A DNA stretch of 64,000 nt from Candidatus Levyibacteriota bacterium. GTDB lineage: Bacteria; Patescibacteriota; Microgenomatia; Levybacterales; UBA12049. A program made the position numbers and the translations under genes. Positions 12,586-20,068 of the stretch are shown here, in pieces. Position 1 is the stretch's first letter; the number at the start of each line of letters is the position of its first letter. The notes below the pieces were generated by a model. It had not been told where the DNA came from, searched no databases, and worked only from the letters and a program-made list of their open reading frames with translations. The stretch is taken from contig CAWBPM010000002.1 of NCBI GenBank assembly GCA_963790825.1, positions 423,159 through 487,158 of the forward strand, read 5' to 3'.

Positions 12586-12840
12586 CTATTTCTCTTTCAT
12601 CTCAGTTATTTCGTCCTTATACTCAAGAATTTCAGGATGCAATTTTATGTCTTTGCGCATCATTGTAAGAACATGGAGTAACTCTTTAACAGAGTCTCCA
12701 ACAATAATCGGCTCTTGTGTCCAAGTCATTGGCTTGTTTGTTTTGTCATACCATGTTTCATGTACACCCAATCCTCCGTTTTTATAACGGAAAATACGAT
12801 AATTCCAATATTCCAGCTTTGGTAAATTTTTTGCTTTCAT
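12586..12840 (-). CDS. hypothetical small protein (possibly HicB-like)
   Basis: 84-aa ORF between the two toxin-antitoxin pairs. Weak resemblance to HicB-type N-terminal domains; not confidently assigned. Confidence 0.25.
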   Translation of the reverse strand: MKAKNLPKLEYWNYRIFRYKNGGLGVHETWYDKTNKPMTWTQEPIIVGDSVKELLHVLTMMRKDIKLHPEILEYKDEITEMKEK

Positions 12841-12864
12841 GGCATAAGACAGTACAACGTACCT

Positions 12865-13140
12865 TTACAGATGTGAAGATTGCAGTTTCTCCATAATCCA
12901 CATCCGGGTAAGACTTGAAATGTTTAAACCTTTCCCTCGTGCTATGTGTTCCAAACGATCTTTTATTGGCTTTTGCAACCGCACGACAATATTTTCCTCT
13001 TTTGGTTGCTCAAGTTGGAAATCCACACTAACCGGCGTAAAGTCATATTCGGTCATGTCATGAGTATCGAACCACTTTGCCATTTCGGTTCTGTTCTTGA
13101 ATTCAGGAATTTGCTTTTTTTGCTGTTTTGTTTGTGTCAT
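12865..13140 (-). CDS. BrnA-family antitoxin (CopG/RHH-like)
   Basis: 91 aa; ...EMAKWFDTHDMTEYDFTPVSVDF...VRLQKPIKDRLEHIARGKGLNISSLTRMWIMEKL matches the BrnA layout (DxxDxxD ... RHH). Confidence 0.6.
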   Translation of the reverse strand: MTQTKQQKKQIPEFKNRTEMAKWFDTHDMTEYDFTPVSVDFQLEQPKEENIVVRLQKPIKDRLEHIARGKGLNISSLTRMWIMEKLQSSHL

Positions 13141-13791: not shown

Positions 13792-14280
13792 ATGAATCGG
13801 TTTAAACCATTCAGACTAATCCCCCAACCTCTTCCAGAACCTGTCTCTATTTTATACGATGAGACTACTTTTTACAACAAATTCAAGCAGGATTTACTGA
13901 AGGCTAAGCAGGAGGTTATTATTGAAAGTCCTTTTATTACTACCAGGAGGCTGGAAATGTTAAAGCCGGTATTTGAAATATTGGTTGATAGAGGCATTAA
14001 AGTCTTTGTCATAACCCGTGATCCTAAAGAGCACGATGAATCTATATCGATACAGGCAGAAGAAGGAGTTCGATATTTTGAAGTTTTAGGAGTACAGGTT
14101 CTATTATGCGAGGGTGGTCATCATCGAAAACTGGCAATAATAGACCGAAAAATTCTCTGGGAAGGAAGTTTAAATATTCTTTCACAGTCTAATAGTCGAG
14201 AAATTATGAGAAGAATAGACAATGAAGAAATGACTAAAGATTTATTTAAGTTTTTGATGTTTGACCGGGTTATTTTTTAG
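13792..14280 (+). CDS. phospholipase D-like (HKD) nuclease-domain protein
   Basis: 162 aa with a single HxKx4D motif (GGHHRKLAIIDRKILWEGSLN), as in the PLD/NucT nuclease family. Confidence 0.55.
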   Translation: MNRFKPFRLIPQPLPEPVSILYDETTFYNKFKQDLLKAKQEVIIESPFITTRRLEMLKPVFEILVDRGIKVFVITRDPKEHDESISIQAEEGVRYFEVLGVQVLLCEGGHHRKLAIIDRKILWEGSLNILSQSNSREIMRRIDNEEMTKDLFKFLMFDRVIF

Positions 14281-14355: not shown

Positions 14356-15651
14356 TTAGTGCGTTAAAATATATTGCCTATGCATTGGAAATTTTTGCAA
14401 TAACGTATCCCTTGCGCTAGTTGTTGGATGTTCCGTCTTATCTCCAATATCACTACCAAAATCAACGTATTTAAATCCTTGATTATCAACGTCAAATACT
14501 AGATCCGCAATAAAATTGATAGTTTGATATCCACTCGCATCCAGCCTTTTTGCAATAAATAATAATTGATCAAGGTATGTTCTTATAATATCATCTGATA
14601 ATGGATTTGAAGCAATACTATTTATAACTCGCTCTGAATGATCATTAACAATAAATTCTTGATAATGAGTGGCGCCTCTAACTCCGTAGTTTTGCGGTAC
14701 AGGAATTCCGATACTTTTAATTTCTTCCATCCTCCTATTATGTATACTTGCCTTTTGTCCAAGACCTCCAGCGAAAGAAATCATATTTTTTTCTTTTATA
14801 TATACATATTGAACAGAGGTATTTGTTGGATCCAATACCGCTACCTTATAGCCATAAATCCAACTTTCAGATCTCATCCCGCTGTCAAAAATTCGTTGTA
14901 TTGAAAGTACCTCCTGTTTATCCCCAACAATCCCTAAATCTCTTAATGTCTCATCGCTTGGCATAGAGGATGCTGTTAAAGCAGCTTTGCTCTCCAACTC
15001 TTGTGTAAGTCCGCGTAAAAAGCCAATCTCTTTTTTTACCGAGTCAACTGAATCACTACCATGAGTTAAATTATTAGGCAATTTATCTTGAATAGCATAT
15101 TTGCCACGAATAGAATTTGGATCTGCTTCATTAGCTCTAGTTTTACCCATACGATTTCTCCACCAACTTACAGCATCACCTTCTGATCTATATATAAGTA
15201 AAAAGGTTAGAGGACCAGATTGTGCGAATTCAGAAATAGTATCCCAAACAGTTTTATCTGGTCCAGCTTGAATTTTTTCATATATTGGTTTTACATCGCT
15301 ATAAAATCTTACAGCCTGTTCGTTATTTAATCGAGATGAAAACGAAAATACGATATTATCCCTTCCAACTTCATCGATTAATTTATCCGCAGCTTCTTGG
15401 TCTCTATCAGGTAAATCTCGTCCTTCGTGAGCATGCGGTTTTATAATACCTAAGGTTAGGTTTCCTTCTTCAATCATTGTATCTAAAGCAGGATGCTGCA
15501 ATACTTCATTAATTTTGTGTAGACGTTCTAACTCCAATGCACCTAAGCTAAGAGTTTCATTTCTTAAACCCACAGAAATTTCATCCGATAGATCTCGGCG
15601 GCTAAGTGAATATGGTGGTTGAACTGAGTTAAATTCTTGTTCTATTTTCAT
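14356..15651 (-). CDS. nucleoside diphosphate kinase domain fused to a C-terminal protein-kinase-like (DFG-motif) domain
   Basis: Residues ~65-215 align to the canonical NDK (LTLGIIKPHA ... SGPLTFLLIY ... NLTHGSDSVDSVKKEI catalytic His). The C-terminal ~200 aa contain IADLVFDVDNQGFKYVDFGSD (catalytic-loop Asp/Asn plus a DFG-like motif). Confidence 0.6.
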   Translation of the reverse strand: MKIEQEFNSVQPPYSLSRRDLSDEISVGLRNETLSLGALELERLHKINEVLQHPALDTMIEEGNLTLGIIKPHAHEGRDLPDRDQEAADKLIDEVGRDNIVFSFSSRLNNEQAVRFYSDVKPIYEKIQAGPDKTVWDTISEFAQSGPLTFLLIYRSEGDAVSWWRNRMGKTRANEADPNSIRGKYAIQDKLPNNLTHGSDSVDSVKKEIGFLRGLTQELESKAALTASSMPSDETLRDLGIVGDKQEVLSIQRIFDSGMRSESWIYGYKVAVLDPTNTSVQYVYIKEKNMISFAGGLGQKASIHNRRMEEIKSIGIPVPQNYGVRGATHYQEFIVNDHSERVINSIASNPLSDDIIRTYLDQLLFIAKRLDASGYQTINFIADLVFDVDNQGFKYVDFGSDIGDKTEHPTTSARDTLLQKFPMHRQYILTH

Positions 15652-15830
15652 ATTTCTTACTTTTTAGCTTTTGAACTTTATTCAAAATTTGAATAAATTG
15701 ATCAAGTTTTTTAATTTCATCAAGCAGTTTCTTCTTAGTTTGATTAGTTTTAAGAGGTAACATATATTATAAGCCATCTCGTTAGGATTTTCAAGCTCGT
15801 CAAAAATTAATATATTATGGTTAAATATAT

Positions 15831-16337
15831 TTATAGAGTATTAGGTTCTTTCTCTATGGAGACAATATTATTTTTTTCGTTATATAATATTTTAACGAAT
15901 TGGACTAAAGAACTTTTTGAAAGTAATGAATCAATTATCTGCTCAAAGGCAGGATATAAATTTTGTTGCTGTAATTGCTTTGATGTAAGAAAAAGGATCT
16001 TACCCTCAGGTGTAGTCGCAATTTCTCCTCCTGCGTAATCAGCAATAAAATAAAATGAAACCCATGTCGAATCATTAGGCCTAACTTCAGTAGTTATAGC
16101 ACTCAATTTCAAATGATTAATATAAACTCCAGCTTCTTCATGTGTTTCTCTTAATGCGCAACTATATATATTTTCATCCTTTTCCAACTTACCGCCGAGT
16201 GGATGTATGACTCCTGGAGCATAATTTTTTTTGTTTGAACGCTTTATTACTATATACTTATTACCTCTTTTAACTAACACATTAACACTTATTACAATAT
16301 TATGTATATAAGGGATTGTGTTTATAGATTGTGTCAT
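15831..16337 (-). CDS. Nudix hydrolase
   Basis: Nudix box GGKLEKDENIYSCALRETHEEAGV (Gx5Ex7REUxEExGU). Confidence 0.7.
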   Translation of the reverse strand: MTQSINTIPYIHNIVISVNVLVKRGNKYIVIKRSNKKNYAPGVIHPLGGKLEKDENIYSCALRETHEEAGVYINHLKLSAITTEVRPNDSTWVSFYFIADYAGGEIATTPEGKILFLTSKQLQQQNLYPAFEQIIDSLLSKSSLVQFVKILYNEKNNIVSIEKEPNTL

Positions 16338-17039
16338 TTAAATATTAATATCGACGTTAACAGCTTGTTTCATATTAAAAACAATTTGATCATACATTAT
16401 GCCAACGACGCTGTCTATAGGAAGAGAAGTTGTATCTATTAAAACAGCATTTTCGGCTTTACGAAGTGGAGATGTAGTTCGAGAAGTATCTAAATTATCT
16501 CTTTCCTGAAGTTGAATAAATAGTGCTTCTAATGATGTATCATGTCCTTTCCCTATCTGCTGCGATAATCTTCTTCTTGTACGAGCCTCAGGAGATGCAG
16601 TTAGGTAAAATTTATGTAAAGCATCAGGAAATATATCAGTGCCAATATCTCTTCCAGCCATCACAATTTCACCTTGCACACCGAATGCTTGTTGTCGAGT
16701 CTTAACAACCCGTCTTACTTCTGCACCAGAGCCTACATATGGTACAATTTTAGTAACAACGGGATTATCTAACTCAGCTGTTACATCAATTCCATTAACA
16801 TAAACTATTTGTTCACAATCAGTTGAAATAATCTGAATATCTAATTCTTGAAATATTTTAGCAGTTTCAACATCCGACTTCGGTTTTAATTCATTTTTTA
16901 ATAAATAATGACATCCCGCTCGGTATAACTGTCCAGAATCAACAAATCTAAAATTTAATTTTTTTGCTATAGACAATCCTGTTGTTGTTTTTCCTGAAGA
17001 AGCAGGGCCATCAACAGTGACAATAGTTTCGTTCCTCAT
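16338..17039 (-). CDS. cmk: cytidylate (CMP/dCMP) kinase-like
   Basis: IVTVDGPASSGKTTTGLSIAKKLNFRFVDSGQLYRA matches the Cmk N-terminal P-loop and NMP-binding segment. The stop is adjacent to the Nudix start. Confidence 0.65.
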   Translation of the reverse strand: MRNETIVTVDGPASSGKTTTGLSIAKKLNFRFVDSGQLYRAGCHYLLKNELKPKSDVETAKIFQELDIQIISTDCEQIVYVNGIDVTAELDNPVVTKIVPYVGSGAEVRRVVKTRQQAFGVQGEIVMAGRDIGTDIFPDALHKFYLTASPEARTRRRLSQQIGKGHDTSLEALFIQLQERDNLDTSRTTSPLRKAENAVLIDTTSLPIDSVVGIMYDQIVFNMKQAVNVDINI

Positions 17040-17812
17040 AAATTTGCACTTACTAACAAATTTTCAACAAATAATCTTTCAGCTTGTTGTATGTTCCACC
17101 GAGGATCTTTCCTAAAACGTGCTTGTTTTTCTTCACTAGTTAAAAAACCTGGTAAGTCTCGAGCTATCATATCATTGTATCCTTCTCTTACAATCTCATA
17201 TACAGGTATACCAACCTCATATTTTAATACTGATAGAGCATTATATTGAGGATTTACCTCAACTTCAAAGAATTGTCCTTGGGGCGCTAAGCTATCAAGC
17301 GTAAATGTCCCAAATGGATTTTCATATTGTACTCGATGTTTATCGACTATAATTGCTGGATTTATTGCTCTAGAGTGAAGTACTTCAGCTAATTCGAAAT
17401 ATACTAATGTGTTTGCGTCTGCAATAGGAGGAACTGGTAGCTGCAATCTTCGAAAGATAGCATTTAAAATTTTTATTGTTTCAGATGTAAAAGGTAAAGG
17501 CATAACTATTTCCTCAATGTACCATGGGTTTTCGCGATTTGCGTATTGGTTAAAGAATAGCGATTTGAATTCAAACATTGTTGGTTGTGGACCTTCAAAT
17601 CTAGCCCTTAAACCTCTATTTAAATTCGTTATTATTGCCTCAGGAGTATCAAAATAAATATCTTTCTGATCATATTCTCCTACTAATTGGGTCTGGTATG
17701 CTAAATAATTTGCTATTTTAGATGAATATTTAGGAGAAACACGGATTTTAACCTCTCGTTCTTCTTTACTTGTATGTTCTTCGTCTTTGGGTTTTCGTCC
17801 TTTCTCTTGCAT
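17036..17812 (-). CDS. CYTH-like (triphosphate tunnel metalloenzyme) domain protein
   Basis: EREVKIRVSP...QKDIYFDTP...GLRARFEG resembles the CYTH N-terminal ExExK motif and the following strands. There is a 4-nt overlap with cmk. Confidence 0.4.
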   Translation of the reverse strand: MQEKGRKPKDEEHTSKEEREVKIRVSPKYSSKIANYLAYQTQLVGEYDQKDIYFDTPEAIITNLNRGLRARFEGPQPTMFEFKSLFFNQYANRENPWYIEEIVMPLPFTSETIKILNAIFRRLQLPVPPIADANTLVYFELAEVLHSRAINPAIIVDKHRVQYENPFGTFTLDSLAPQGQFFEVEVNPQYNALSVLKYEVGIPVYEIVREGYNDMIARDLPGFLTSEEKQARFRKDPRWNIQQAERLFVENLLVSANL

Positions 17813-17846
17813 AATTTTTAATATTTCAAATATATTTATATAACAA

Positions 17847-19391
17847 TTAGTTTTTTACTCCAGGTAAATATTCTCCAAGAGCCAACATATCTCGTCTTTG
17901 TAAAGTCATTGCATCTGCAATCAATCCTTGAATTTCGGATGGCTTGATGTCAGAAAATGCTAGATCAGTAGTATAATTGTGTTTTTGTCTCTCTTCAAGT
18001 CCTTCTAATAATACTGGCTGAAATCCTCTTAATATTTCTTCTTCAGAATACATATATGATCTTTGAGGATTTCCCCAAATTCCTTCAGGCCAAGACTCTA
18101 TACCGGTTATATAATTATATAAAGCAGTACCTGGATAGGGTCTAAACTCAAACATACTACCTCTAAATTGAGCGTTATTTGTTTTTCCAGATGGAGTTAT
18201 AGGATTTCTAGCAACTGCATCTCGCGTAACTTGACGTAACCGATGCATAAAAGCGATTGTTTGTTCCATCTCTTCACGTGTTTCAGATGGGGTTCCTAAA
18301 ATAAAGTATCCCTTAGTCCTTATACCAACACTAGCTAGTTTAGCAACTGACTCTTCAACCATTTCGGGTGTTACTTTTTTATCCATTACACCAAGAACAC
18401 GAGGTACAGCGGACTCGATACCCATCGAAATTTCGCGACATCCACTTAACGCTATCATATTCATGATATCAGTCCCAAGCATTGATAGTATATTCGCTCT
18501 ACCAGTCGCATCCCATACGAAGTCACTATTTAATCCTGTTTGTATCATATGGGTAAGAAACCCTTCCATTCTTTTTCTATTTGCAAGAAAAAGATCATCA
18601 AGAAATCTTACAGCATTAACTGATTGATCTCTTAACATTTCTAGTTCACCGATCATATTCTGAGGCGTACGGTTTCGTACTCCAAATAACATCATTTCTC
18701 TTGCTCCAGCACAGAATCTGCAGTTAAATGGACATCCTCTAGAGCCAACCATATTCGTCTCAGTTCGTCCTTCAGACAAAAAAGGATCATTTGGTAAAAA
18801 TTTTCTGTCTGCATATGACAATTCGTCGATATTCCACGGAATCCATAACTTATCTGGATCTGTTCGTCTTTCAACAAATTCGCCAGTTTTTTCATCAATA
18901 TACGCAATTCCACTCATTTGTCGAGGTTCAACGTCTTTTAATAAACCTCTCATAACATATTCTCCATCTTCAAGGGCAAGTACCTTTATTTTTCTTCCAA
19001 TGTCCGGATCTCTCAATACCTTCTCCGGTAGTGCTTTTGCATGTGCCGCCCCAACTGCAACAGCAATAGACGGGTTAACATTTTTGAGTATTCTTTTAGC
19101 AAGCGAATATGTGGGAGTTAATAAATTAATACCTATCCACCTTGGATTTGCCTCATTTAGAATTCTTGCTGCTGTTTCGGGGGATAACGCTTGCGTTTCT
19201 ACATCAAGCACACCAACATTATATCCTACCCTTTCGCATTCAGTTGCAATATATGCTAATCCAAATGCTGGAAGTTCTTCCGTATCTGGTCGATTTATAT
19301 TTGTGTAATCATTAATTGGAGAATTAACTAATATCAGATCAGCTTTTTGTTGTGGCTCTTTAAGTCCGCTTATGTAAGTTTCTTTTTCCAT
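17847..19391 (-). CDS. B12-binding-domain radical SAM enzyme (class B)
   Basis: The N-terminus has a Rossmann-like cobalamin-binding region. A CPFNCRFC (CxxxCxxC) radical SAM motif follows. 514 aa. Confidence 0.7.
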   Translation of the reverse strand: MEKETYISGLKEPQQKADLILVNSPINDYTNINRPDTEELPAFGLAYIATECERVGYNVGVLDVETQALSPETAARILNEANPRWIGINLLTPTYSLAKRILKNVNPSIAVAVGAAHAKALPEKVLRDPDIGRKIKVLALEDGEYVMRGLLKDVEPRQMSGIAYIDEKTGEFVERRTDPDKLWIPWNIDELSYADRKFLPNDPFLSEGRTETNMVGSRGCPFNCRFCAGAREMMLFGVRNRTPQNMIGELEMLRDQSVNAVRFLDDLFLANRKRMEGFLTHMIQTGLNSDFVWDATGRANILSMLGTDIMNMIALSGCREISMGIESAVPRVLGVMDKKVTPEMVEESVAKLASVGIRTKGYFILGTPSETREEMEQTIAFMHRLRQVTRDAVARNPITPSGKTNNAQFRGSMFEFRPYPGTALYNYITGIESWPEGIWGNPQRSYMYSEEEILRGFQPVLLEGLEERQKHNYTTDLAFSDIKPSEIQGLIADAMTLQRRDMLALGEYLPGVKN

Positions 19392-19495: not shown

Positions 19496-20068
19496 TTATC
19501 TTGAATATTCGGGGTCGTCACGCATTCTCTGTTCAATTAGATCTCTAAAAAAATCAGATTTAGAAGCATATCTTCTCTTTTTAGCAGCCCACTTCATATA
19601 AGAATCAATTTCATGTGATATAAAAACATTAAATTTAACCTTATTTTTTTTAAATGAACTTAAGAAATGAGATAACTGTTTGCTCAAATTACTTTTATTA
19701 AAGATTAATAGATTAAATATTTGAGAGTTTCTTTTATGAGTGAGAATATTGGGAATATTAGCTTGATTACTATCCTCACAGATACATAAAATAGGGACAT
19801 TATTATAACGCGCAAATTCAATTAGTATACCAAGAGAAATTGATTGATCAGTTATATCTACCATTAGAAGATCAGAGTTACTAACGCTTTTTAACGCTAC
19901 TTCATAAAGGTCTGGTGGCAATGGCACTTTATCTTTATTTTCAACAACAGAAGTTAAATATGGGTTGCTATTCTCAATATCTAAAGAACGAAAAATTTCT
20001 AAAATAGATCTAAATTGTTCTTTATTATCGCCCATTCTCTCTGTAGTGGATGTTAAATACACTTTCAT
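19496..20068 (-). CDS. nucleoside 2-deoxyribosyltransferase-like domain protein with C-terminal RHH-like tail
   Basis: MKVYLTST ... SDLLMVDITDQSISLGILIEFARYNNVPIL pattern of the NDT/LOG-like fold. The C-terminus FISHEIDSYMKWAAKKRRYASKSDFFRDLIEQRMRDD resembles a ribbon-helix-helix. Confidence 0.4.
   Translation of the reverse strand: MKVYLTSTTERMGDNKEQFRSILEIFRSLDIENSNPYLTSVVENKDKVPLPPDLYEVALKSVSNSDLLMVDITDQSISLGILIEFARYNNVPILCICEDSNQANIPNILTHKRNSQIFNLLIFNKSNLSKQLSHFLSSFKKNKVKFNVFISHEIDSYMKWAAKKRRYASKSDFFRDLIEQRMRDDPEYSR

Follow-up and report, generated by a model that had tools for sequence, protein, structure and literature searches.

A nucleoside diphosphate kinase fused to a RIO/Bud32-like domain, and the undescribed family to which this domain belongs

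Nucleoside diphosphate kinase (NDK) is among the most studied housekeeping enzymes, and we know of no dedicated partner protein for it. A gene in the window, by which the whole analyzed stretch of 64,000 nucleotides is meant, raises the question of whether such a partner exists. In a first-pass annotation made from the sequence alone, the gene had been described as an NDK fused to a second, "ePK/APH-like" kinase domain, placed within a candidate island operon and proposed to channel two successive phosphorylations. Is this indeed one gene, what kind of domain does the NDK carry, and what might that domain do there?

One gene encoding two enzyme folds

Analysis of the open reading frames of the window showed a single frame on the minus strand which runs from ATG to stop, encodes 431 aa and contains no internal stop or frameshift, with the same end points that the first-pass annotation had given (Table 1). 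The architecture of the encoded protein is common to 24 full-length homologues (identity 33-54%, E 1e-48 to 1e-148), and this recurrence indicates that the fused ORF is not a product of chance. The full-length AF2 model has a pLDDT of 90.7 and a pTM of 0.85.

The first-pass annotation had itself named two ways in which it might be wrong, namely a C-terminal domain without kinase character (see below) and two genes misread as one through a stop or frameshift missed during annotation or assembly. Natural split versions with separate ndk and RIO-like genes do exist, namely in loci L006 and L089 and on the contig of P0041, and could be taken to favor such an artefact. The frame in the window is continuous, however, the same continuous fusion is present in at least 24 independent metagenomic homologues, and AF2 places a continuous helix across the domain junction, which together leave this reading with practically negligible probability. 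That the protein consists of an NDK and a RIO/Bud32-like domain is well supported, and we consider this anatomy very likely to be correct.

Table 1. Positions of the fusion gene, its predicted parts and its upstream neighbors within the window.
Feature	Position	Strand	Basis
Whole gene, 431-aa NDK::RIO-like fusion	14356..15651	minus	single ORF; architecture common to homologues; full-length AF2 model
Stop codon of the fusion gene	14356-14358	minus	
RIO/Bud32-like minimal protein-kinase-like domain, predicted, aa ~246-431	14359..14916	minus	AF2; Foldseek PDB; BFVD; Pfam RIO1 in relatives; hhalign
Motif region D383-L-V-F-D...V-D397-F-G399-S-D401-I-G403	14443..14505	minus	conservation; Bud32 alignments; model strands
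Asn379, at the HRD/HGD catalytic Asp position	14515..14517	minus	HMM alignment to Bud32 8k20_B; hhalign; column composition
Lys288, probable strand-3 ATP-binding lysine	14788..14790	minus	K in 134/144; in modelled strand 280-290
Nucleotide-binding (P-) loop SGMRSESWIY, aa 257-266	14854..14883	minus	column statistics, 144 sequences
Linker, aa 214-245	14917..15012	minus	DSSP of full-length model; conserved FPSE motif
NDK domain, aa 60-213	15013..15474	minus	Pfam; PDB matches; alignment to canonical NDKs; Foldseek
Catalytic His197 codon, motif NLTHGSDS	15061..15063	minus	invariant in 25 homologues; aligns with NDK active-site His
N-terminal extension, aa 1-59, mostly helical	15475..15651	minus	separate HMM; full-length model
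Promoter-like site TTGAAA-17-TATAAT, 11/12 matches	15766..15794	minus	best of 7.3-kb scan; total count not above shuffled controls
NUDIX, upstream, co-directional	15831-16337	minus	Pfam and NCBIfam
(d)CMP kinase (cmk), upstream, co-directional	16338-17039	minus	Pfam and NCBIfam
CYTH, upstream, co-directional	17036-17812	minus	Pfam and NCBIfam
B12-binding radical SAM, upstream, co-directional	17847-19391	minus	Pfam and NCBIfam

The NDK part

The central part of the protein matches Pfam NDK (PF00334) above the gathering threshold (56.3 bits vs. a cutoff of 27, E 4.1e-15), and a PDB search with the protein returned more than 100 NDK matches. Alignment with canonical NDKs shows that all active-site residues are kept (K71, Y117, R165, T171, R182, N194, H197, S199, and E208), and these residues are invariant or nearly so in 25 homologues. 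Foldseek comparison of the full-length model with PDB NDK chains gave target-normalised TM values of 0.7-0.8 at an rmsd of 2.2-3.3 Å. The assignment of a full NDK including its catalytic His is borne out by these observations, and the domain is predicted to be a catalytically complete nucleoside diphosphate kinase. The cutoff of the housekeeping equivalog NCBIfam NF001908 was not reached (52.8 bits vs. 155), and on sequence grounds the domain is a divergent NDK.

Relative to canonical Ndk/NME proteins (PF00334), with which it shares active-site residues and fold, the fusion protein has a 59-aa N-terminal extension, two insertions within the NDK domain (8 aa after strand 1 and 10 aa after Tyr117) and the C-terminal kinase-fold domain. 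A separate HMM showed that Patescibacteria NDKs keep the extension whether or not they carry the C-terminal domain, the NDK-only proteins L008-L014 included; in the full-length model it comprises helices 2-8, 14-17, 19-30, 38-52, and 55-61. According to DSSP, the two domains are bridged by a linker in which the last part of a long helix (202-227) is followed by a short helix.

The C-terminal domain is closest to RIO and Bud32

The C-terminal domain (about 185-190 aa) was modelled by AF2 with a pLDDT of 93.9, its elements following the order strand-strand-strand-αC-strand-strand-hinge-helices-strand 7-strand 8. A Foldseek search with this model yielded 130 PDB matches at E<=1e-3, and the 50 matches listed are kinases throughout. 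The best among those listed are RIOK2 (7vbt_B, E 2.4e-6), A. fulgidus Rio1 (1zth, E 4.4e-6) and Bud32/PRPK, with a query-normalised TM of 0.49-0.56 against Rio1; LicA choline kinase is also among them. Structure matches in BFVD are nearly all kinases as well. On these grounds, the earlier claim of a protein-kinase-like domain at the C-terminus can be upheld, with a size of about 190 aa.

The more specific label "ePK/APH-like" was not borne out. For APH (PF01636), the query gave no match and one of 57 relatives was marginal (E 0.02), the Brenner motif HxDxxxxN being absent, and the Pkinase models of Pfam matched neither the query nor the relatives examined. Membership in the ePK or APH families was rejected because these profile matches and motifs are missing. 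The query did not match Pfam RIO1 (PF01163) at E<=10 either, but ten of the 57 relatives did so weakly at E<=1, the best of them at 3.1e-5; relative P0036, for which a score is listed, had 18.8 bits, below the cutoff of 22. Profile alignment by hhalign to Bud32 gave a probability of 42% (E 2.6e-4, 123 columns), with the catalytic loop aligned but lacking its Asp, and a PDB profile search matched Bud32 (8k20_B) at an E of about 1. Bud32 was the only family that aligned through both the catalytic loop and the DFG motif. As judged from the models, the C-terminal domain is of the protein-kinase-like fold with RIO/Bud32 as its nearest families. It is very small, stops about 30 residues past the DFG motif, and lacks an activation segment and a substrate-binding lobe.

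With the RIO kinases Rio1 and Rio2, the domain has in common a reduced C-lobe without activation loop, a Glu-containing P-loop, the DFG Asp and a similar αC-to-hinge pattern (R..L...G[IV].[VT]P..Y ... EFI). It differs from them in lacking the catalytic Asp of the RIO motif HxDLSxxN, whose Asn is replaced by Asp383, as well as the αC Glu and the N-terminal helix/flexible-loop module. RIO kinases function in maturation of the small ribosomal subunit, whereas here the partner is NDK and the neighborhoods belong to nucleotide metabolism rather than to ribosome biogenesis. Bud32/PRPK (TP53RK) resembles the domain in its minimal kinase fold, its GAEA-like P-loop and its fusion or adjacency to one dedicated enzyme, archaeal Kae1-Bud32 fusions being known from KEOPS. 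In contrast to Bud32 with its HGDLTTSN loop, the Asp of HGD is not conserved in the NDK-linked family, and NDK takes the place of Kae1 as partner; Kae1/TsaD, KEOPS or t6A genes were neither fused nor adjacent in any locus examined. APH, choline kinase and thiamine kinase are likewise of the PKL fold and likewise belong to metabolism, not signaling, but they are much larger than the domain, which has neither their substrate-binding C-terminal helical lobe nor the Brenner Asp.

Active-site residues of the C-terminal domain

Conservation was assessed on 144 domain sequences and on the fused full-length set of 25 homologues. The family consensus of the P-loop is RGGAET[YF] with Glu262 near-invariant, which we take to resemble the RIO "GKEA" and Bud32 "GAEA" loops. 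Across the 144 sequences, E262, K288, R307, D371, D383, D397, G399, and D401 are conserved family-wide. D397, the DFG Asp, is kept in 142 and G399 in 141 of them; together with D401, an additional invariant Asp beyond the DFG motif, both are invariant in the 25 full-length homologues and nearly so in the larger set. D371 is likewise invariant, and the αC carries the conserved Arg307.

The first-pass annotation had interpreted IADLVFDVDNQGFKYVDFGSD, which spans aa 381-401, as a catalytic loop followed by DFG. VDFG is indeed the DFG motif, but "DLVFD" does not qualify as a canonical catalytic loop, D383 being aligned with the metal-binding Asn in both HMM and profile-profile alignments to Bud32. 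In the full-length model, D383 directly precedes strand 384-387, which is paired with strand 392-395 leading into D397. An assignment of D383 as the HRD Asp with D387 as the Asn was considered and rejected, since D387 is found where strand 7 ends distally, by the hairpin turn, and shows no conservation among standalone members. The position of the catalytic Asp itself is occupied by N, S, D, or G across the 144 sequences, and no position of loop 376-382 holds a conserved acidic residue. The αC Glu position (H304) is not conserved either, with H, Q, or E in fused and W in standalone proteins. The domain would retain a predicted ATP·Mg2+-binding set of Glu262, Lys288, Asp383, and Asp397, while the Asp of the catalytic loop and the Glu of αC appear to have been lost, and the invariant Asp371 and Asp401 and the conserved αC Arg307 to have been gained.

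A family linked to NDK by fusion and by gene neighborhood

A profile search placed the domain in a family that comprises no fewer than 318 clusters (50% identity), mostly standalone proteins of about 220 aa that are often encoded beside ndk. The family has no Pfam or NCBIfam model and no PDB representative, and its clusters are publicly annotated as "nucleoside-diphosphate kinase" or "hypothetical" with no other functional names. A word-indexed protein search with a broad domain profile returned three matches, none informatively named, and a scan of genome contigs, in which the NDK motif predominated, gave Patescibacteria genes with NDK alone, NDKs of actinobacteria that are unrelated, and no further fusions. 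In the searchable literature, including a 2026 preprint on new PKL families, neither a fusion of NDK with a kinase fold nor a representative of the family was found. The family is undescribed.

Its architectures include NDK->RIO, RIO->NDK, a 994-aa NDK-RIO-like protein and a RIO-like domain with adenylate kinase; in P0112, the domain is fused to a mitochondrial-carrier protein. The NDK and adenylate kinase fusions occupy separate regions of the domain tree, by which the family is judged to have been fused independently to NDK, in both orders, and to adenylate kinase. Close relatives of the fusion protein without the C-terminal domain exist as well (P0031, P0033, L008-L014).

For standalone members, ndk was directly adjacent in three of five loci looked up and two genes away in a fourth. 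NDK was matched no more than 4 kb away or in the same frame at 13 out of 45 metagenome loci, with both gene orders represented, a lower bound as many contigs are short; the other 32 had no NDK within 4 kb, though many of those contigs are short, and the linkage is frequent but not universal. NDK was the commonest Pfam family among 131 neighbor ORFs, which also included NUDIX, dCTP deaminase-like, radical SAM, Ham1, ThyX, and HD_3. Fused homologues are found in dTTP/pyrimidine clusters with tmk, thyA, DHFR, DCD, NUDIX, and YfbR-like HD genes, and the NUDIX, CYTH, and radical SAM genes upstream of the gene studied here recur beside RIO-like/NDK genes elsewhere. P-loop NMP kinases are encoded nearby, namely cmk in the window and tmk in L136 and L137. 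We consider it likely that members of the RIO-like family are dedicated NDK partners, fused or encoded adjacent to it, in nucleotide-pool metabolism.

The framing as part of an island operon is weak, since the best promoter-like site lies directly upstream of the gene, in the gap of 179 nt, and the homologues occupy varied chromosomal contexts. This site is suggestive as a candidate promoter of the fusion gene, although the total count of such sites did not exceed that in shuffled controls. Island cargo was rejected on account of the varied contexts of the homologues, several of which are nucleotide-metabolism clusters. A defence or viperin-like cassette was rejected as well, because the radical SAM proteins encoded beside some NDK/RIO-like pairs match pVip by the generic radical SAM core only and score 55-57 bits, below the viperin equivalog cutoff of 180. 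PADLOC gave no match for the fusion protein.

Possible roles of the RIO-like domain

The explanation that we favor, although tentatively and with somewhat less than even confidence, is that the RIO-like domain is an ATP·Mg-binding module which works together with NDK in phosphoryl transfer to a nucleotide. It would bind ATP·Mg and, without a general base, transfer a phosphoryl group onto an acceptor that is already anionic. This acceptor would most plausibly be a phosphate group, namely that of a (deoxy)nucleoside monophosphate or related nucleotide. The neighboring NDK site would then take over the product, so that a single polypeptide would perform the steps NMP -> NDP -> NTP. As a general base is absent and conserved Arg/Lys residues are present in the P-loop and αC, a phosphate acceptor would fit better than a hydroxyl. 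This specific chemistry, base-independent transfer to a nucleotide phosphate, is a best guess to which we assign a minority share of the probability. The putative channelling of two successive phosphorylations proposed in the first-pass annotation is plausible, and the more so because fusions to NDK and adenylate kinase recur, as does adjacency.

Several points count against a nucleotide-phosphorylating module. RIO and Bud32 serve chiefly as ATPase switches for a partner protein, not as metabolite kinases, and have kept the catalytic Asp, and the homology to them is weak at the sequence level, as the low hhalign probability and the RIO1 score below cutoff show. With cmk or tmk already encoded next door, the need for another NMP kinase is not evident, and the linkage to NDK, though frequent, does not extend to all loci. 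The domain might instead be an ATP-binding or -hydrolysing switch that regulates or assists NDK without making a metabolite, possibly gating its oligomer state or activity in response to ATP/ADP or dNTP levels. This would parallel the action of Bud32 on Kae1 in KEOPS and of Rio1/Rio2 on the pre-40S particle, the nearest structures being partner-dependent ATPases, and the obligate association of the domain with a single partner protein, whether by fusion or by adjacency, resembles that of Bud32 with Kae1. The predicted ATP·Mg ligands are retained, the mitochondrial-carrier fusion looks like a regulatory nucleotide-sensing module, and the pTM of the full-length model suggests a fixed interdomain arrangement. 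However, the ATPase activity of Bud32 and RIO depends on the very Asp that is missing here, and NDK is not known to require a regulator; a switch is rather unlikely but keeps an appreciable share of the probability.

A kinase domain that has lost the HRD Asp together with the αC Glu bears a classic pseudokinase signature, and the lack of conservation at both positions, the small size of the domain with its short stretch after DFG, and its complete loss from some close relatives would fit a catalytically dead scaffold, an oligomerisation module or a passive nucleotide- or NDK-binding domain. Against this stands the near-invariance of K288, D383, D397, G399, and D401 across sequences of only about 20-50% identity, as one would expect of a metal-nucleotide site that is in use and not of one in decay. 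We consider a dead domain improbable. The PKL fold with its DFG motif and the many protein kinases among the PDB and BFVD matches could also point to a protein Ser/Thr (or His/Asp) kinase acting on NDK or on some other protein, with NDK as a local source of NTP. A catalytic base, an activation loop and the αF-αI substrate platform are all absent, though, as are Pkinase matches in Pfam, and the genomic context is metabolic, not signaling, so that we regard this as very improbable.

In its most far-reaching form, the favored explanation of nucleotide phosphorylation together with NDK would make the domain the founder of a new class of kinase-fold nucleotide kinases, base-independent (d)NMP/nucleotide-phosphate kinases in an NMP -> NDP -> NTP relay. 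We consider this form unlikely as it stands; it would include a kinase that many uncultivated bacteria encode as a standalone protein beside NDK and that has, in addition, been fused independently to NDK and adenylate kinase.

Implications

The tie to NDK is threefold, comprising fusion in both domain orders, adjacency to ndk in both gene orders and neighbors that act on nucleotide pools, and suggests that nucleotide metabolism has a partner enzyme which has gone unrecognised. Core nucleotide phosphorylation at this step is to date known as the work of P-loop kinases, with the exception of the UMP kinase PyrH, and the relay, if real, would be the first case of a protein-kinase-fold enzyme in it. 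A catalytic domain would represent a new enzyme for nucleotide salvage in the small genomes of host-dependent Patescibacteria as well as an example of a kinase fold that is active without the canonical catalytic Asp. If the domain is regulatory, it would be the first regulator built into an NDK and would correspond, in bacteria, to the Bud32-Kae1 pair.

A precedent for NDKs with accessory domains is given by the multidomain group II eukaryotic NDKs (NME5-9; e.g. PMC7024210), but these are axonemal proteins whose accessory domains are DM10, thioredoxin or Dpy-30 and never a kinase fold. In locus L006, a canonical NDK adjoins the split NDK/RIO-like version, which suggests that the split or fused NDK is a specialised paralogue.

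Architecture of the fusion protein and its NDK domain

The protein under study consists of a nucleoside diphosphate kinase (NDK) and a C-terminal domain resembling RIO and Bud32 kinases (RIO-like domain). No stop codon or frameshift was found within its ORF, and since 24 full-length homologues (33-54% identity, E values of 1e-48 to 1e-148) have the identical three-part layout, the fusion is no artefact. The few named homologues originate from Patescibacteria or Microgenomates MAGs and are annotated merely as "nucleoside-diphosphate kinase". Neither a fusion of NDK with a kinase fold nor a RIO-like family associated with NDK was found described in Pfam 2025, NCBIfam 2026, PADLOC, the searchable literature or the PDB.

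The NDK domain scores 56.3 bits (Pfam gathering cutoff 27), and more than 100 solved NDK structures match the query. Aligned with canonical NDKs of related loci, and also with the E. coli and Dictyostelium enzymes, the query shows the full catalytic set (K71, Y117, R165, T171, R182, N194, H197, S199, E208) conserved; relative to these NDKs, it carries insertions of 8 aa after strand 1 and of 10 aa after Tyr117. The protein belongs to the NDK family in all features tested except the housekeeping NCBIfam equivalog score, which is far under its cutoff (52.8 vs. 155), and its NDK is complete. The first-pass annotation of a single gene with an NDK core including the catalytic His is thereby borne out. 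Several Patescibacteria (proteins P0031 and P0033, loci L008-L014) have extension and NDK together but lack the C-terminal domain, which is therefore an add-on within one clade. The ~59-aa extension, which is helical, is kept across Patescibacteria NDKs with or without the RIO-like domain; oligomerisation is one possible role.

Coordinates and composition of the fusion gene, its surroundings in the window, related loci (L) and related proteins (P)
Feature	Location	Composition or basis
NDK::RIO-like fusion gene	window 14356-15651 (-)	uninterrupted ATG-to-stop ORF, 431 codons
N-terminal extension	aa 1-59; window 15475-15651 (-)	local HMMs
NDK domain	aa 60-213	local HMMs
C-terminal domain	aa ~215-431	local HMMs
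Tight co-directional run	window 15831-19391 (-)	B12-binding radical SAM (514 aa), CYTH (258 aa), (d)CMP kinase, MutT-like NUDIX
ORF upstream of this run	window 19496-20068	190 aa; no family match
CopG-type antitoxin and partner ORF	window 12586-13140 (-)	91 aa and 84 aa
Small PLD-like protein	window 13792-14280 (+)	matches PADLOC MkoC/MkoB/DrmC models
Recurrent operon	L119, L126	NUDIX - RIO-like - NDK
Recurrent operon	L093	NDK - RIO-like - NUDIX
Recurrent operon	L090:3458-6075, L091:38-2197	NDK - RIO-like - radical SAM (Radical_SAM + Fer4_12)
Recurrent operon	L129, L123, L007	NDK - CYTH-like - RIO-like
Co-directional run	L007:573-6639	RelA_SpoT (327 aa), two unknown proteins, NDK (181 aa), CYTH-like (210 aa), His_Phos_1 phosphatase, standalone RIO-like
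Deoxypyrimidine cluster, first part	L136	DCD - tmk - DCD/dUTPase-like, then opposite-strand gene without Pfam match
Deoxypyrimidine cluster, second part	L136	thyA - NUDIX::DHFR - NDK::RIO-like - NUDIX - NUDIX
NUDIX::DHFR fusion	L136:4875-5801	308 aa, immediately precedes the NDK fusion gene
Deoxypyrimidine cluster	L135	HTH-NUDIX - HD(YfbR-like) - NDK::RIO-like - HD(YfbR-like)
Deoxypyrimidine cluster	L137	NUDIX - PRTase - NUDIX - tmk, divergent from NDK::RIO-like
Adenylate-kinase-containing protein	L005:4628-5701	357 aa, directly upstream of an NDK-only homologue
Split pair with second NDK	L006:5053-7106	NDK (284 aa), RIO-like (234 aa); back-to-back canonical NDK (173 aa)
Stop-free frame	L115:2-8545	8.5 kb; NDK, RIO-like, HAD-like, dephospho-CoA kinase, iPGM domains
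Fusion proteins	P0091, P0125	canonical NDK, RIO-like
Fusion protein	P0092	RIO-like, NDK
Fusion protein	P0090	994 aa; NDK, RIO-like
Fusion protein	P0131	1533 aa; RIO-like + adenylate kinase
Fusion protein	P0112	535 aa, eukaryote-like; RIO-like + mitochondrial-carrier domain

Fold and active site of the RIO-like domain

The AlphaFold2 model of the C-terminal 217 aa reached a mean pLDDT of 93.9, the full-length model a pLDDT of 90.7 and a pTM of 0.85; in the latter, the NDK fold ends in a long helix (aa 202-227) that extends into the linker. The modelled N-lobe comprises three strands, a helix at the αC position and two strands; after the hinge follow two helices, a short loop and a strand 7/strand 8 hairpin that stops at D397-F-G; the model closes with a pair of short helices and contains neither an activation segment nor an αF-αI lobe. 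This order of elements is that of a kinase. A Foldseek search against the PDB yielded 130 matches at E<=1e-3, the best 50 of which were all protein-kinase-like, led by human RIOK2 (E 2.4e-6), A. fulgidus Rio1 and human PRPK/Bud32; the query-normalised TM against the top RIO/Bud32 structures was ~0.5. Matching viral predicted structures were almost all kinases as well, including a phage "RIO-like" kinase. The full-length model matched NDKs (target-normalised TM 0.7-0.8) and RIO kinases as separate regions, with no solved PDB chain covering both domains. [quoted passage not shown]

Outside the NDK domain, the query has no Pfam, NCBIfam or PADLOC match. The C-terminal domain aligned by hhalign to a Bud32 profile built in this analysis (E 2.6e-4, probability 42%), its profile matched plant Bud32 chains from αC to DFG at E ~1, and a broader family profile matched Rio1 at E 0.28. 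Pfam RIO1 matches at E<=1 were obtained for 10 of 57 family members (best E 3e-5); P0036, the sole match with a listed score, falls under the gathering cutoff. These sequence signals are weak and agree with the RIO/Bud32 direction of the structural matches. Assignment as a RIO, Bud32, ePK or APH kinase was rejected, as profile thresholds are failed or the defining catalytic-loop Asp is missing.

Column statistics of 144 domain sequences revealed as near-invariant E262, K288 (strand 3), R307 (αC helix), Y322, Y330 (the gatekeeper position according to the alignment with plant Bud32 chains), D371 (end of the helix at the αE position), D383, D397, G399, D401 and G403. E262 lies within a P-loop of consensus RGGAET[YF], similar to the P-loops with Glu that RIO and Bud32 have; the invariant residues D371 and D401, as well as the conserved αC arginine, are particular to this family. 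In two independent Bud32 alignments, D383 corresponds to the catalytic-loop Asn, consistent with its position directly before strand 7 in the model, D397 to the DFG Asp and N379 to the HGD Asp. Of the catalytic loop plus DFG read by the first-pass annotation from aa 381-401, the DFG (D397) therefore holds and the catalytic loop does not. Position 379 is N/S/D/G across the family, no conserved acid occurs anywhere in loop 376-382, and at the αC Glu position (304) H/Q/E or W are found. The nucleotide-Mg ligands are thus kept, but general base and Lys-Glu pair are missing.

Coupling of the RIO-like family to NDK

An exhaustive profile search of 1.84 billion representatives (E<=1e-3) recovered 318 clusters, the majority of members being standalone proteins of about 210-240 aa. 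When the domain is ordered by neighbour-joining, the fusion architectures are scattered, indicating that the fusions arose independently. The adenylate kinase and mitochondrial-carrier fusions are further ties of the domain to nucleotide handling.

In three of five look-ups of standalone genes (L006, the P0041 contig and L089), ndk was located immediately upstream, with overlapping stop and start in L089; in L007 it lay two genes away, and L088 showed no ndk by the RIO-like gene. Among 45 metagenome loci recovered with a standalone-subfamily profile, 13 had an NDK match within 4 kb or, in L115, in the same reading frame, a lower bound since many contigs are under 3 kb; the genes usually abut, in either order. 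Given that genomes normally have NDK in one copy, such linkage greatly exceeds chance; in evolutionary terms, the family is coupled to NDK and nucleotide-handling enzymes. The canonical NDK beside the split pair in L006 suggests that the partnered NDK is a specialised paralogue and that two NDK paralogues have different roles in one organism. The L115 frame encodes a single giant multi-enzyme protein or else spans several genes, in which case the genome would be recoded or very stop-poor.

Possible function

The second domain is a kinase fold in which the ATP·Mg ligands are conserved and a canonical base is missing. That both modules cooperate physically we infer from fusions in either order, from split genes lying side by side and from the pTM of 0.85. 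Our best guess, a tentative one, is that the RIO-like domain would pass the γ-phosphate of ATP on to a nucleotide, at one of its phosphate oxygens, e.g., (d)NMP to (d)NDP, after which NDK would complete the conversion of NDP to NTP. A phosphate acceptor fits the domain, because such a transfer needs no general base and would profit from the conserved Arg/Lys. However, neighbouring genes already encode P-loop NMP kinases, and metabolite kinases are not among the nearest relatives.

Hardly less likely than this guess is that the domain would be an ATP-dependent switch in the style of RIO/Bud32, acting on NDK. A nucleotide-binding pseudokinase scaffold appears unlikely, and a protein kinase very improbable. 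An NDK::RIO-like protein is surprising to kinase and nucleotide-metabolism specialists; phosphate transfer to a nucleotide stands at the level of a prediction, which is directly testable.

Gene neighbourhoods

Across 131 neighbour ORFs from 33 non-redundant loci, NDK was the commonest Pfam family (9 members), followed by GatB (5), radical SAM (4), NUDIX (4) and dCTP-deaminase-like proteins (3), with single occurrences of Ham1, ThyX, HD_3 and endonuclease V. The CYTH-like proteins of the recurrent operons are homologous to one another (E 1e-35 to 1e-102). Identification of the L090/L091 radical SAM as viperin was rejected, since pVip matches via the generic core alone and the viperin equivalog cutoff was failed; upstream in L090 lie a microbial PARG-like gene and a choline-kinase/APH-like kinase. 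The L007 run adjoins ArdC, PIN and integrase, and its cassette therefore appears to be on a mobile element, possibly serving nucleotide signalling or as a toxin.

Fused homologues are located in deoxypyrimidine clusters, some others among tRNA synthetase or glycosyltransferase genes. In the window, the preceding same-strand genes encode B12-radical SAM, CYTH, cmk (TIGR00017, 202.8 bits vs. a cutoff of 135.55) and NUDIX. In view of these surroundings the "island operon" setting was abandoned; nucleotide-pool metabolism, not island cargo, is the best description of the gene. The top promoter-like match of a 7.3-kb scanned stretch lies in the 179-nt gap before the gene. The window radical SAM showed its best, sub-threshold similarity to HpnJ/BchE/PhpK-type enzymes, and GC in the region of its run is about 0.33-0.35, compared with about 0.39-0.44 in much of the window. 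The CopG pair and PLD-like gene just downstream of the fusion gene are possible defence or mobile-element remnants.
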